A stretch of DNA of 64,000 nucleotides, from contig CAMAVH010000002.1 of assembly GCA_945861615.1 (NCBI GenBank), forward strand, positions 2,955-66,954, in the 5' to 3' direction. Positions within the stretch are counted from its first letter, which is position 1. Each line of letters opens with the position of its first letter. This DNA is from Rhizobium sp. Q54 (GTDB lineage Bacteria; Pseudomonadota; Alphaproteobacteria; SMXQ01). Position numbers: made by a program. Below, piece by piece: positions 12,001 through 15,000 of the stretch.

Positions 12001-15000
12001 GCTTCAAGGCTGCGATCTCGCTCAACACGCTGCACAACCTGGCGCGCGACGATCTCAAGACTGCGTTGCAGGAAATGCAGCGCGTGTCGGGCGGCCGCGC
12101 CTTCGTGCAGGTCGACAGTTACCGCACCCCCGAACAGAAAGCGCTGTTCGAGGACTGGGTTCTGACCGCCAAGTTCCACGACTATCCGGACGGCTGGATC
12201 AAATTGTTCAATGAAGCCGGCTACACCGGAGACTATTATTGGACCATCATCGGCTAAGGAGTTGACCGCATGGCCACAGGCAAGAACGCCTTCGACGCGG
12301 ACGCCGCGAAACTGCGCGTCAACCGCTACCGCAAGCGCATCCTGGAAGTCTCTCAGCAGGTCCAGGCGTTGCACATCGGCTCGGCCTATTCCTGCACCGA
12401 GATCGTCGACGTCGTCTACAATGGCCTGATGCGCCACGGCGAGGCCGGCGGCACGCGAGACATCTTCCTGATGTCGAAGGGCCACGGCTGCATGATCCAA
12501 TACGCCATTCTGGAAGAGCGCGGCACGCTGACCCGCGCCGACATGGACGCCTATTGTACACCGACGGGCCGTCTCGGCTGTCACCCCGACCACGGCAATC
12601 CCGGCATCGAAGCGGCGACCGGCGCGCTTGGCCACGGCCTGTCGATGGCCGTCGGCATGGCGCTCGCCGAGCGCGGCCGCAAGCGCGACACCATCGTCTA
12701 TACCGTGCTGTCGGACGGCGAGCTGCAGGAAGGCTCGACCTGGGAAGCGACGCTGATGGCTTCGTCCTTCGGCGTGAAGAACCTCGTCGCCTTCGTCGAC
12801 AATAACGACTTCCAAAGCCTCGGCCGTACCTCTCAGACGCATCCGAGCTTCTATCCGGTGGTCGAGAAATATCTCGCTTTCGGCTGGGAAAGCGTTCAGG
12901 TCGACGGCCACGATTCGGCGGCCATCCACGACGCGGTTGCCTCCCGCAAGGGCGACAAGCCGCTGATGGTCGTCGCCAAAACGACCAAGGGCAAGGGCAT
13001 CAGCTACATGGAAAACGTGCCGATCTGGCACTACCGCTCGCCCAACAAGGACGAATATCAGCAAGCCCTGAAAGAACTGGAGGCCGCGCTGTGAGAAACA
13101 CATTCTCCGAAGCGCTTTACGACGAAGCCAAGAAGAACCCGGACATCTACATCGTCGTCGCCGACATCTCGCCGGCCGGATCGATGGCGAAGTTCTCGAC
13201 GGAGTATCCCGAGCGCTTCATCAATGTCGGCGTCGCCGAACAGAGCATGATCGGTATCGCCGCCGGCCTGGCGCTGCGCGGCTGCCAGCCCTTCGCCTAC
13301 ACCATCGCCACCTTCTCGCTGTACCGCCCGTTCGAAATGGTGCGCGACGATCTGTGTTACCAGAACCTGCCGGTCACCGTCGTCGGCATGGGCTCGGGCG
13401 TGATCTATTCGACGCTCGGCGGCACTCACCACACGCAGGAAGACATCGCGGTGGCCGGCGCGATCCCCAACATGCAGATCATCGCGCCCTGCGATCCGGC
13501 GGAATGCACCGAAGCGACGCGCCATTGCGCGACGCAGAAGGTCGGCCCGATCTATCTGCGCCTCGGCAAGGCCGGCGAGCCGGACATGACTAAGGGCGCC
13601 GAGCCGTGGAAATTCGGCAAGCTGCGTTACCTGCGCCGCGGCAGCGACGTCTGCATCCTGACCTACGGCGTCATCACCAAGATGGCGGCGCAAATCGCCG
13701 ACAGCTTGGCGGCGCAAGGCAAATCCGTGTCGCTGGTGTCCTGCCATACGCTCAAGCCGCTCGACCGCGAGGGCATCATCGAGGCGCTCAAGACCCACAA
13801 GCAGGTCATCGTCATCGAAGAGCATGCGCCGCAGGGCGGCCTCGCGCCGCAGACCAAACAGATCGCCTGGGACATCAAGGCGACCTGCCGGCTCGACACC
13901 TTCACCCTGCAGGACAAGTTCATCCATAACTACGGCTCACACGACGACCTGTTGGCGGCGCACGGCCTGTCGCCGCAGCGCATCCTCGCCGCCGTCGCCT
14001 GAGCCGGTCGCGTCGGGGCGGGGGCGTCGTGCGAGTTCTCGTCACAGGCGTCTCTGGCTTCGCCGGCAGCTTCATCGCCGAACATCTGGCCGCGAGCGGC
14101 CATGATGTCGCCGGCCTCTACCGGCGCGGCCTCGGCTTTGCCGGGCGCCTGACCGGCCGGAGCGGCCTGACGCTCCTTCAGGGCGATCTGACGGCCCTGG
14201 AAGCCCTTCCGGGGCCTTATGAGGCCGTCATCCATGCCGCCGCCACCTCGCCGGCACCCGGCATCGACGACGCCACCGTATTGCGCGATGGACGCGACGC
14301 GACGCGCGCTCTGCTCGCCCGGATGCGGACCTGGAACAGCCGCAAGCTGGTGTTCCTCTCCTCGCTCTCGCTCCATGGCGAGATCGACAGTCCGATCGTC
14401 GATGAAACCACGCCCATTCTCCGCCCCGACGCCTACGGGGTCTCCAAGGCCGACGCCGAACGGATGATTGCCGACGAGGCCGGCTGGCTGCCGGCCGTTG
14501 CGCTACGCCTGCCTGGCGTCATCGGGCCGGGCGCCCATCGCAATTGGCTGTCGGGCGTCGCCGCCAAGCTGCGCGCCGGCCAGCCGGTGCGCGCCTTCAG
14601 TCTGGCTGCGCCCTTCAACAACGCCTGCCACGTCGCCGATCTGTCCCGCCTGGCCGAAACGCTTATCGCGCGTGACTGGACAGGCTTCGACGCCATGACG
14701 CTGGGCGCGCGCGGCACCATCTCCGTGCGCGCCGCCATCGAGATCTTAGCAGCGGCCATGAAGCTGCCTTGCCGCATCGACGAAGCACCGGCGACAAAGC
14801 CGGGGTTCCTGTTATCGAGCGAGCGCGCCATCGCGCGTTGGGGTTACGATCCGATGGAGATCGGCGCGATGATCGCGCGCTATGGCCGCGAGGCCTAGGG
14901 CGCCGGCACGAAGCGGGCGCGGCTCGCGTGCATCCACAGGGCGAAGGCGTCGTACGGCGTCAAACGCGGTCTCCCGGCCAGGATGTCGTCGGCCGAAAAC

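Follow-up and report, generated by a model that had tools for sequence, protein, structure and literature searches.

We analysed a 64,000-nucleotide stretch of DNA (the window) from a metagenome assembly contig of Rhizobium sp. Q54 (CAMAVH010000002.1, positions 2,955 to 66,954), in which two adjacent genes, TK-N and TK-C, encode the halves of a split transketolase-like enzyme. We consider it rather probable that this pair is a thiamine diphosphate (ThDP)-dependent, transketolase-like carboligase re-purposed for nucleotide-sugar biosynthesis, where it would attach a two-carbon unit to a carbonyl group on a higher sugar in nucleotide-activated form. The product is probably a surface sugar of eight or more carbons that carries an extra two-carbon unit.

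Structure and active site of the split transketolase pair

Listing and translation of open reading frames (ORFs) gave two genes at exactly the positions where the earlier note had proposed two adjacent, overlapping ORFs:

12270-13094, + strand: TK-N, the ThDP-binding (PP-domain) half of a split transketolase-like enzyme (Transketolase_N, cofactor residues retained)
13091-14002, + strand: TK-C, the Pyr and C-terminal half (Transket_pyr and Transketolase_C)

TK-N starts with ATG, encodes 274 amino acids and has an AAGGAG Shine-Dalgarno sequence 8 nt upstream; TK-C starts with GTG, encodes 303 amino acids and has GGAGG 9 nt upstream. The genes overlap by 4 nt, with the GTG of TK-C overlapping the TGA stop codon of TK-N (GTGA). 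Their GC contents at third codon positions (GC3) were 0.84 and 0.89, respectively, values usual for genuine genes of the window. A 509-amino-acid antisense ORF (11574-13103, - strand) spans the methyltransferase gene upstream of the pair and TK-N; since the sense genes have these GC3 values, we regard it as a high-GC artefact that should not be annotated.

Pfam searches detected Transketolase_N in TK-N (4e-35), and Transket_pyr (1e-31) and Transketolase_C (4e-22) in TK-C, which bears out the division into a ThDP-binding N-terminal half and a pyrimidine-binding and C-terminal half that had been read from the sequence earlier. The two proteins together have the PP, Pyr and transketolase C-terminal domains of the transketolase superfamily. 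The best matches in the PDB came from the split transketolase of Carboxydothermus hydrogenoformans (chains 6YAK and 6YAJ), and the split lies at the same position in both enzymes. Identity to this genuine split transketolase was 34-36%, and to E. coli TktA 23-29%. Against the NCBIfam transketolase equivalog, TK-N scored 209 bits and TK-C 175 bits for a cutoff of 488, each protein covering only half of the model. Only transketolase-type domains were found by Pfam, and none of the TPP_enzyme_N/M/C domains that make up the fold of the acetohydroxyacid synthase (AHAS) and pyruvate decarboxylase type seen in YerE. No second tkt or dxs gene was present within the window.

In alignments with E. coli TktA (E. 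coli numbering is used for reference residues), Dxs and 6YAK/6YAJ, TK-N retained H35, H72 and H105, equivalent to H26, H66 and H100 of TktA, and a Mg site formed by D149 and N179 in SDGE...NN (D155 and N185 in TktA). TK-C retained E50, which corresponds to the cofactor-activating E411, as well as H113 (H473) and R2 (R358). The ThDP/Mg motif and the activating Glu, both features of the transketolase superfamily, were invariant across the family.

Structures of the yeast and E. coli transketolases show that other residues bind the substrate phosphate and the C2-hydroxyl of the acceptor. At these positions TK-C differed from both TktA and 6YAJ, with S385 replaced by A29, H461 by G101, D469 by L109 and R520 by K160. 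Three of the four residues of the canonical phosphate site (R358, S385, H461 and R520) are changed and R358 is kept, while the GEDG motif that holds the acceptor Asp, D469, reads STLG. Among 77 cassette-linked TK-C sequences, the Ala, Gly, Leu and Lys replacements were found in 69-77, and Leu occupied the Asp position in 76. TK-N had novelties of its own that are invariant in the family, namely H122 replacing Gln, and WHYRSP (Y255 and R256) replacing WHGxxP. Judged by these residues, the TK-N/TK-C pair does not belong to the housekeeping transketolases.

A search of 1.84 billion cluster representatives (50% identity) returned 1500 clusters at an E-value of 1e-30 or less, and the closest 150 were aligned. 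Almost all of these, with members from several phyla, had the non-canonical VGxGxGxxY..G.THH motif combined with Lys or Arg as residue 160; few were canonical. The window pair therefore represents a subfamily (YSTL, K160, A29) of a large transketolase-derived radiation, whose markers are LGH and WHYRSP in the N-terminal half and GxGxGxxY...THH...K in the C-terminal half.

The similarity of TK-C to 1-deoxy-D-xylulose-5-phosphate synthase (DXS) bears on the donor. The enzyme could decarboxylate pyruvate as DXS does and add a hydroxyethyl or acetyl unit, not a glycolyl unit, to the sugar carbonyl, which would make it functionally equivalent to the YerE or E1-type enzymes. TK-C scored almost as well with DXS models (164 bits) as with transketolase models (175 bits), matched DXS structures in the PDB at 1e-29, and all characterised ThDP enzymes that attach two-carbon branches to sugars take pyruvate. 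The score of 164 bits nevertheless lies far from the DXS equivalog cutoff of 466, and TK-N is clearly transketolase-like and weakly DXS-like, since DXP_synthase_N matched it at 5e-05, a much poorer match than that of Transketolase_N. In transketolase, H100 and H473 bind the C1-hydroxyl of the donor; their equivalents are kept here, as they are in DXS too. We think pyruvate use unlikely, with a modest chance of being correct, and it is a variant of carboligation onto a nucleotide sugar and not a true alternative to it.

The conserved cassette and the contexts of distant relatives

The pair lies near the end of a plus-strand run of about 13 genes (2794-14898), with gaps of 0-81 nt and several overlapping stop and start codons. 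Apart from TK-N and TK-C, and with short-chain dehydrogenases/reductases (SDRs) labelled a to d and NDP standing for nucleoside diphosphate, the run contains:

2794-3381, + strand: SIS-domain ketose/aldose phosphate isomerase, diverged GmhA/LmbN-like paralogue (Pfam SIS_2)
3416-3958, + strand: HAD-IIIA phosphatase, diverged GmhB/LmbK-like paralogue (NCBIfam NF006506, 134 bits for a cutoff of 178)
3955-4689, + strand: small transaldolase TAL_FSA (Pfam, 2e-41), candidate LmbR-like C3 donor enzyme for a higher ketose phosphate
4771-5874, + strand: SDRa, extended SDR of the epimerase type with SSS...YxxxK (Pfam Epimerase, 3e-41)
5871-6878, + strand: SDRb, extended SDR, GalE/LegB-like epimerase or oxidoreductase; SSS in place of TDE, by motif no 4,6-dehydratase
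6892-8451, + strand: nucleotidyltransferase-kinase fusion (CTP_transf_like at residues 36-163, PfkB at 200-496)
8482-9408, + strand: GFO/IDH/MocA oxidoreductase (Pfam), always paired with the next gene
9405-10685, + strand: NDP-sugar dehydrogenase resembling UDP-glucose dehydrogenase (UGDH), without the catalytic Cys (alignment to PDB 4A7P)
10717-11601, + strand: SDRc, atypical SDR resembling heptose epimerase or fucose synthase (profile matches, motifs)
11601-12257, + strand: class I S-adenosylmethionine-dependent methyltransferase, 218 amino acids (Pfam), near-constant upstream neighbour of the pair
14029-14898, + strand: SDRd (Pfam), directly after the pair, candidate reductase of the keto group (YerF-like role)

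The SDRs and the methyltransferase named earlier as flanking the pair were thus recovered with Pfam. A heptose/transaldolase module, also claimed earlier, is indeed present upstream (2794-8451), but it looks more like the module of the lincosamide octose than like one for a plain heptose. The isomerase (54 bits with NCBIfam gmhA, cutoff 209), the phosphatase and the fusion (154 bits with the HldE model, cutoff 521) all scored far below the GmhA, GmhB and HldE cutoffs and are diverged paralogues, whereas the transaldolase exceeded the cutoff of TIGR02134 (342 bits for 282). In the fusion the domain order is the reverse of HldE, with the cytidylyl/adenylyltransferase-like domain N-terminal and the PfkB sugar kinase C-terminal. 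None of the cassette SDRs had the TDE motif of 4,6-dehydratases on motif reading. A second GmhB-type phosphatase gene (742-1317, + strand), 2 kb from the cassette copy, scored 194 bits for the cutoff of 178 and is probably the housekeeping heptose-bisphosphate phosphatase.

Alignment of the UGDH-like protein to 4A7P showed that GGSCFPKD is changed to SGGNLERD, with Asn in place of the catalytic Cys and retention of the Lys, Asn and Asp residues. Asn was present in all 61 cassette homologues. A uronic acid should therefore not be formed by the normal thiohemiacetal mechanism, and the enzyme, as judged from this replacement, probably stops at the carbonyl and not at the acid. The protein looks like a member of a distinct, apparently unannotated subfamily of NDP-sugar dehydrogenases that do not form acids.

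Relatives of TK-N are numerous, with more than 7,600 database sequences at an E-value of 1e-20 or less, the best 120 of which were all 72-99% identical and 267-283 amino acids long. A scan with one genome per species confirmed 591 relatives, and the window proteins were mapped onto the loci of the best 80 of these. The cassette was found in nearly all of the 80. The nearest genomes were alphaproteobacterial metagenome-assembled genomes (TK-N 98% identical), and the 80 belonged mainly to Alphaproteobacteria (Rhodospirillaceae, Xanthobacteraceae, Thalassobaculum and Stellaceae), including the cultured Bradyrhizobium guangdongense, B. manausense and Bradyrhizobium sp. BR13661, with the remainder from Gamma- and Betaproteobacteria, Myxococcota and Acidobacteriota.

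TK-C directly followed TK-N in 75 of 76 loci from different species, a pairing far beyond chance. In 57 of 78 loci the methyltransferase gene was no more than 400 bp from TK-N on its upstream side; the others that the gene map shows have an extra gene in between. Of the 53 loci that extend at least 9.5 kb upstream, 40 had the transaldolase, and the kinase-nucleotidyltransferase fusion, the GFO oxidoreductase, the UGDH-like enzyme and the SDRs were likewise each found in 40-46; the SIS isomerase was also seen in many loci. The gene after TK-C encodes an SDR in the window and in many other loci, and a DegT aminotransferase along with acyltransferases in others. A sister pair (TK-C 47-48% and TK-N 52% identical) stands behind the same nine upstream genes, with a short-chain SDR in the place of the methyltransferase. 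On one alphaproteobacterial contig (CAWIRE010000001.1, 2409286-2450895), two split transketolase pairs are separated by about 20 kb, and parts of the cassette accompany each. Among plasmids there was no close homologue of the pair, every match being at most 37% identical. Two relatives of 38-41% identity lie on contigs too short to reveal their gene context. The searchable literature yielded no account of the proteobacterial cassette, and nothing relevant on a split transketolase with polysaccharide or O-antigen. The cassette is conserved and uncharacterised.

More distant relatives occur in other sugar loci. A pair on a Methylovirgula plasmid is 36-40% identical to that of the window and shares LGH, WHYRSP, GxGGGxxY..HH and RLGKGG. 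Its gene order is rfbF-rfbG-oxidoreductase-rfbH-TK-N-TK-C, so that it directly follows the enzymes that make CDP-4-keto-3,6-dideoxyglucose and takes the place of YerE in the yersiniose pathway; no YerE-like gene was found near it. A relative 72% identical to the Methylovirgula TK-C, on a contig broken by frameshifts, has upstream fragments of an SDR of the Epimerase/GDP-mannose-dehydratase type and of a protein of the DegT family, which includes RfbH, and has genes for a family 2 glycosyltransferase (GT2) and GtrA downstream. The locus in Chthonomonas calidirosea runs Wzz, NTP transferase, dehydratase-like SDR, further genes, SDR, TK-N, TK-C and GT2. These and related contexts suggest that the substrates of the clade are nucleotide-sugar carbonyls.

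A second recurrent context of non-canonical split transketolases involves radical-SAM enzymes and methyltransferases. In Azospirillum argentinense Az39, such a pair on plasmid p5 (48336-50098) is found beside B12-binding radical-SAM enzymes, methyltransferases and a kinase, and in Campylobacter fetus the split transketolase CFF8240_1587/1589 occurs with B12-binding radical-SAM enzymes, methyltransferases and two glycosyltransferases (PMC5013579).

With an intact cofactor site and a transaldolase in the same operon, the pair could be an ordinary transketolase that, with the transaldolase, adds to the non-oxidative pentose-phosphate enzymes and boosts sedoheptulose-7-phosphate or ribose-5-phosphate for a heptose or octose. 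The two activities do co-occur in the pentose-phosphate pathway, the transaldolase exceeds its NCBIfam cutoff, and the catalytic His and Glu as well as the ThDP-binding residues are intact. Yet throughout the family the acceptor Asp is replaced, as are all the phosphate-binding residues but R358, and each half shares just 34-36% identity with a genuine split transketolase. The pair also sits among the NDP-sugar tailoring genes, at the opposite end of the operon from the transaldolase, and relatives with the same signature occur in loci that have neither a transaldolase nor a higher-sugar module. We regard precursor supply as very improbable. Because the phosphate and acceptor residues are replaced family-wide and the pair travels with the cassette in the best 80 of 591 relatives, the earlier view that it does not serve central metabolism holds.

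Proposed pathway and the surrounding glycan locus

Gene structure, domains, residues and cassette conservation were observed directly, and from these we infer the substrate, the donor, the site of the C-C bond and the product of a carboligation pathway. LmbR, the transaldolase of lincosamide biosynthesis, condenses ribose-5-phosphate with a C3 unit to give octulose-8-phosphate. The cassette transaldolase would likewise build a higher ketose phosphate, most likely octulose 8-phosphate. Its conversion to an NDP-octose or, less likely, an NDP-heptose would then fall to the SIS isomerase, the HAD phosphatase and both domains of the kinase-nucleotidyltransferase fusion; since the transferase is of the HldE type, the sugar would probably be ADP-linked. 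The SDR epimerases, the GFO oxidoreductase and the Cys-less UGDH-like enzyme are predicted to create a carbonyl on the nucleotide sugar. We favour an octose over a heptose on three grounds: the transaldolase is among the core genes, the paralogues of GmhA, GmhB and HldE have diverged, and a pair resembling LmbL and LmbZ is present. We take LmbL to belong to the UGDH-like family and LmbZ to the GFO/IDH/MocA family, that is, to the families of the cassette pair at 8482-10685. LmbL and CcbZ perform a 6,8-dehydration.

The split transketolase would form a ThDP-bound two-carbon carbanion, probably dihydroxyethyl from hydroxypyruvate or a ketose, with DXS-like hydroxyethyl from pyruvate as a possibility. 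Its addition to the carbonyl would give either a hydroxyacetyl-branched tertiary alcohol or a chain longer by two carbons: a ring or exocyclic ketone as acceptor would lead to the tertiary alcohol, as proposed for miharamycin, and a terminal aldehyde to chain extension. The downstream SDR would reduce the new keto group, which the DegT aminotransferase would aminate instead in sister cassettes; the SDR or DegT gene found after the transketolase is what one would expect were a keto group processed next. The adjacent methyltransferase may methylate the product, and the sugar would be polymerised and then exported by the Wzm/Wzt system. The branched or chain-extended higher sugar of the earlier note stands as the best available reading, with relatives of the same signature lying behind NDP-keto-sugar genes, and the product sugar itself is one that we infer.

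The oxidised side chain also lends itself to the opposite reaction. A C7-oxidised NDP-octose, made by the GFO and UGDH-like enzymes, would carry HOCH2-CO-CHOH-R, the exact donor motif of a transketolase. The pair could cleave this two-carbon ketol in the manner of DesAB, shortening the chain or re-attaching the unit elsewhere as an intramolecular migration of the branch. Such use of a non-phosphorylated ketol by a split transketolase has been proposed for DesAB (PMC3735941), no donor-supplying gene was seen in the cassette, and transketolases of the window type and the P0130 type occurred only with the transaldolase and higher-sugar module in the contexts examined. Making an octose and then cutting it back would, however, be wasteful, and the Methylovirgula-type relatives belong to pathways without a cleavable side chain. 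We give this rearrangement little credence.

Several points weigh against a two-carbon transfer onto a nucleotide-activated octose as well. To our knowledge, no enzyme of the clade has been characterised in vitro, and we know of no glycan structure for any carrier of the cassette. The position of the acceptor is not readable from the sequence, so that a ring ketone, an exocyclic ketone and a terminal aldehyde are all compatible with it. No cassette SDR has a TDE motif, and a classic NDP-4-keto-6-deoxy acceptor is therefore not evident. The transaldolase meets the NCBIfam threshold for an ordinary transaldolase, which leaves octose and heptose both in play, and the comparison with the Lmb enzymes is one of domain content alone. 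No gene for making hydroxypyruvate was seen in the cassette. Moreover, no split transketolase proposed to branch a sugar has been characterised in vitro (PMC12247030).

Directly beyond the cassette, and convergent with it, lie:

14895-15386, - strand: NUDIX hydrolase, often found with the cassette (Pfam)
15386-16982, - strand: Wzt/Wzm-type ATP-binding cassette (ABC) exporter (ATPase 15386-16150, ABC-2 permease 16155-16982)

The exporter matched the Wzt/RfbE-like NCBIfam model with 265 bits, below the curated cutoff of 400. A Wzt/Wzm-type exporter marks the locus as one for an ABC-transporter-dependent glycan. Farther along are a carbamoyltransferase with SxtJ and DUF5989 partners, a Glf-like mutase, several O-methyltransferases and an acyltransferase. 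The SxtJ-like protein, the DUF5989 protein of about 50 amino acids and the carbamoyltransferase are encoded together (18286-20752, + strand), a trio that we take to correspond to the saxitoxin-cluster genes sxtJ, sxtK and sxtI. In several genomes two of the three, the SxtJ-like protein and the carbamoyltransferase, again lie next to the cassette, a hint that the glycan is O-carbamoylated.

Among the ORFs submitted across the glycan locus of about 45 kb, none matched a glycosyltransferase family in Pfam. Six large ORFs (387-878 amino acids) were without any Pfam match: 1304-2893 (-), 16987-18150 (-), 22000-24171 (+), 34862-36397 (-), 37401-38576 (-) and 38650-41286 (-). The one of 529 amino acids gave a faint Wzx-like match, and the one of 387 amino acids recurs by the ABC transporter in related loci. 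These six may encode glycosyltransferases or polymerases that have gone unrecognised. Near the edge of the locus, a Rad52/Rad22-type recombinase fused to DUF968 (47626-49056, + strand) has a phage-type look and may be a prophage remnant. At 50692-52140 (- strand), a BrkB/YihY membrane domain and an Rrf2-type transcriptional regulator domain share a single ORF.

Comparison with known systems

We find it quite plausible, if a shade short of probable, that the window pair is the founding and experimentally tractable member of a clade, very large and so far unrecognised, in which C-C ligases derived from transketolases work on nucleotide sugars for surface glycan synthesis, and that together with the lincosamide-like octose pathway it makes an undescribed branched or extended sugar of ten carbons, or ten carbons plus methyl, widespread in soil and aquatic Alphaproteobacteria including Bradyrhizobium. 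If so, it would supply the missing biochemical case of transketolase-type carboligation onto a sugar carbonyl, a reaction postulated so far for two Streptomyces antibiotics and wanted as a biocatalytic route to tertiary alcohols. Octose synthesis by way of a transaldolase, which is known from lincosamide antibiotics only, would then be broadly used for Gram-negative surface glycans, and the O-antigens or capsules of many soil and water Alphaproteobacteria, cultured Bradyrhizobium among them, would contain an undescribed higher-carbon sugar. A simple sequence signature separates these enzymes from true transketolases, with which they share the annotation 'transketolase'. The cassette is widespread and experimentally accessible; the kind of reaction is itself known but still hypothetical.

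With housekeeping transketolases (TktA; 6YAK/6YAJ), the window pair has in common the fold, the order of domains, the ThDP/Mg motif, the catalytic His and the activating Glu, and it differs from them in replacement of the phosphate-binding His, Arg and Ser and of the acceptor Asp. DesAB of Clostridium scindens is a split transketolase-type steroid-17,20-desmolase, proposed to cleave the non-phosphorylated tertiary ketol of cortisol (PMC3735941). Like the window enzyme it is a split transketolase-like pair, and its proposed reaction is the chemical reverse of adding hydroxyacetyl to a ketone; it is, however, catabolic, uses a steroid and comes from a Firmicute, and the two are set side by side here by description.

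The earlier note had also likened the pair to yersiniose biosynthesis. That analogy fails, because YerE is an enzyme of a different class: the YerE-type enzymes behind yersiniose, erwiniose, caryophyllose and gastriose are members of the decarboxylase superfamily with alpha-keto-acid donors (PMC9306805). The acetyl branches of aldgamycin, kibdelomycin and related compounds are made by E1-type enzymes. YerE and ErwE have the role that we predict for the window transketolase, C-C branching of an NDP-keto sugar followed by reduction by an SDR (YerF), but they are single chains of the decarboxylase/AHAS-like type, and nothing suggests that they are closer to the window enzyme than ThDP enzymes are in general. 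As products, we rejected erwiniose, caryophyllose and the 'ropiose' of R. palustris, whose known or assumed route starts from CDP-4-keto-3,6-dideoxyglucose, uses YerE-like enzymes and involves no octose.

Bradyrhizose, the bicyclic C10 sugar of the O-antigen of photosynthetic Bradyrhizobium, requires an operon of 11 genes (PMC4743980). A link to it is disfavoured, as the internal primers for gdh of strain ORS285 matched no cassette gene (at most 5 mismatches in DNA, at most 2 in peptide). No photosynthetic strain was recognisable among the best 80 of 591 relatives, where other Bradyrhizobium were 70-73% identical.

The enzymes of the lincosamide octose pathway include the transaldolase LmbR, the isomerase LmbN, the kinase LmbP, the phosphatase LmbK, the nucleotidyltransferase LmbO, the epimerase LmbM and the aminotransferase LmbS (PMC4351081, PMC12945683), along with LmbL, named a 'C8 dehydrogenase', and LmbZ, named a 'C8 oxidoreductase' (PMC4351081). 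Five of these activities, transaldolase, SIS isomerase, anomeric kinase, HAD phosphatase and nucleotidyltransferase, are encoded within 2794-8451, and the adjacent GFO oxidoreductase and Cys-less UGDH-like dehydrogenase are candidate counterparts of LmbZ and LmbL by family. In activities and domain content, which is what we compared, the cassette and the GDP-octose pathway have the same set, including a DegT aminotransferase in some cassettes. They differ in that the lincosamide pathway is without a transketolase and without such a methyltransferase, and in the nucleotidyltransferase, which in the cassette shares a polypeptide with the kinase and is of the HldE (cytidylyl/adenylyl) type.

There is a close parallel in gene setting with the transketolases of miharamycin and amipurimycin. 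The earlier note had stated that split transketolases typically transfer a ketol unit onto an NDP-4-keto-sugar. This overstates the case; a 2025 review describes transfer of hydroxyacetyl onto a keto sugar as a proposal for the split-gene transketolases of these two antibiotics, none of them characterised and the transfer never shown in vitro (PMC12247030). The same review lists 13 genome-mined candidates for split-transketolase sugar branching, all from Streptomycetes (PMC12247030). As in miharamycin, where a split transketolase lies in a sugar-tailoring cluster beside a keto-making oxidoreductase, the window pair stands amid SDRs, the GFO oxidoreductase, the UGDH-like dehydrogenase and a methyltransferase, so that the two systems are likened by gene setting and by predicted reaction. 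The miharamycin and amipurimycin enzymes belong to peptidyl-nucleoside antibiotic pathways of Streptomyces, whereas the window pair belongs to surface-glycan loci of Proteobacteria and other phyla. Unlike them, it is coupled to a transaldolase-based higher-sugar module.

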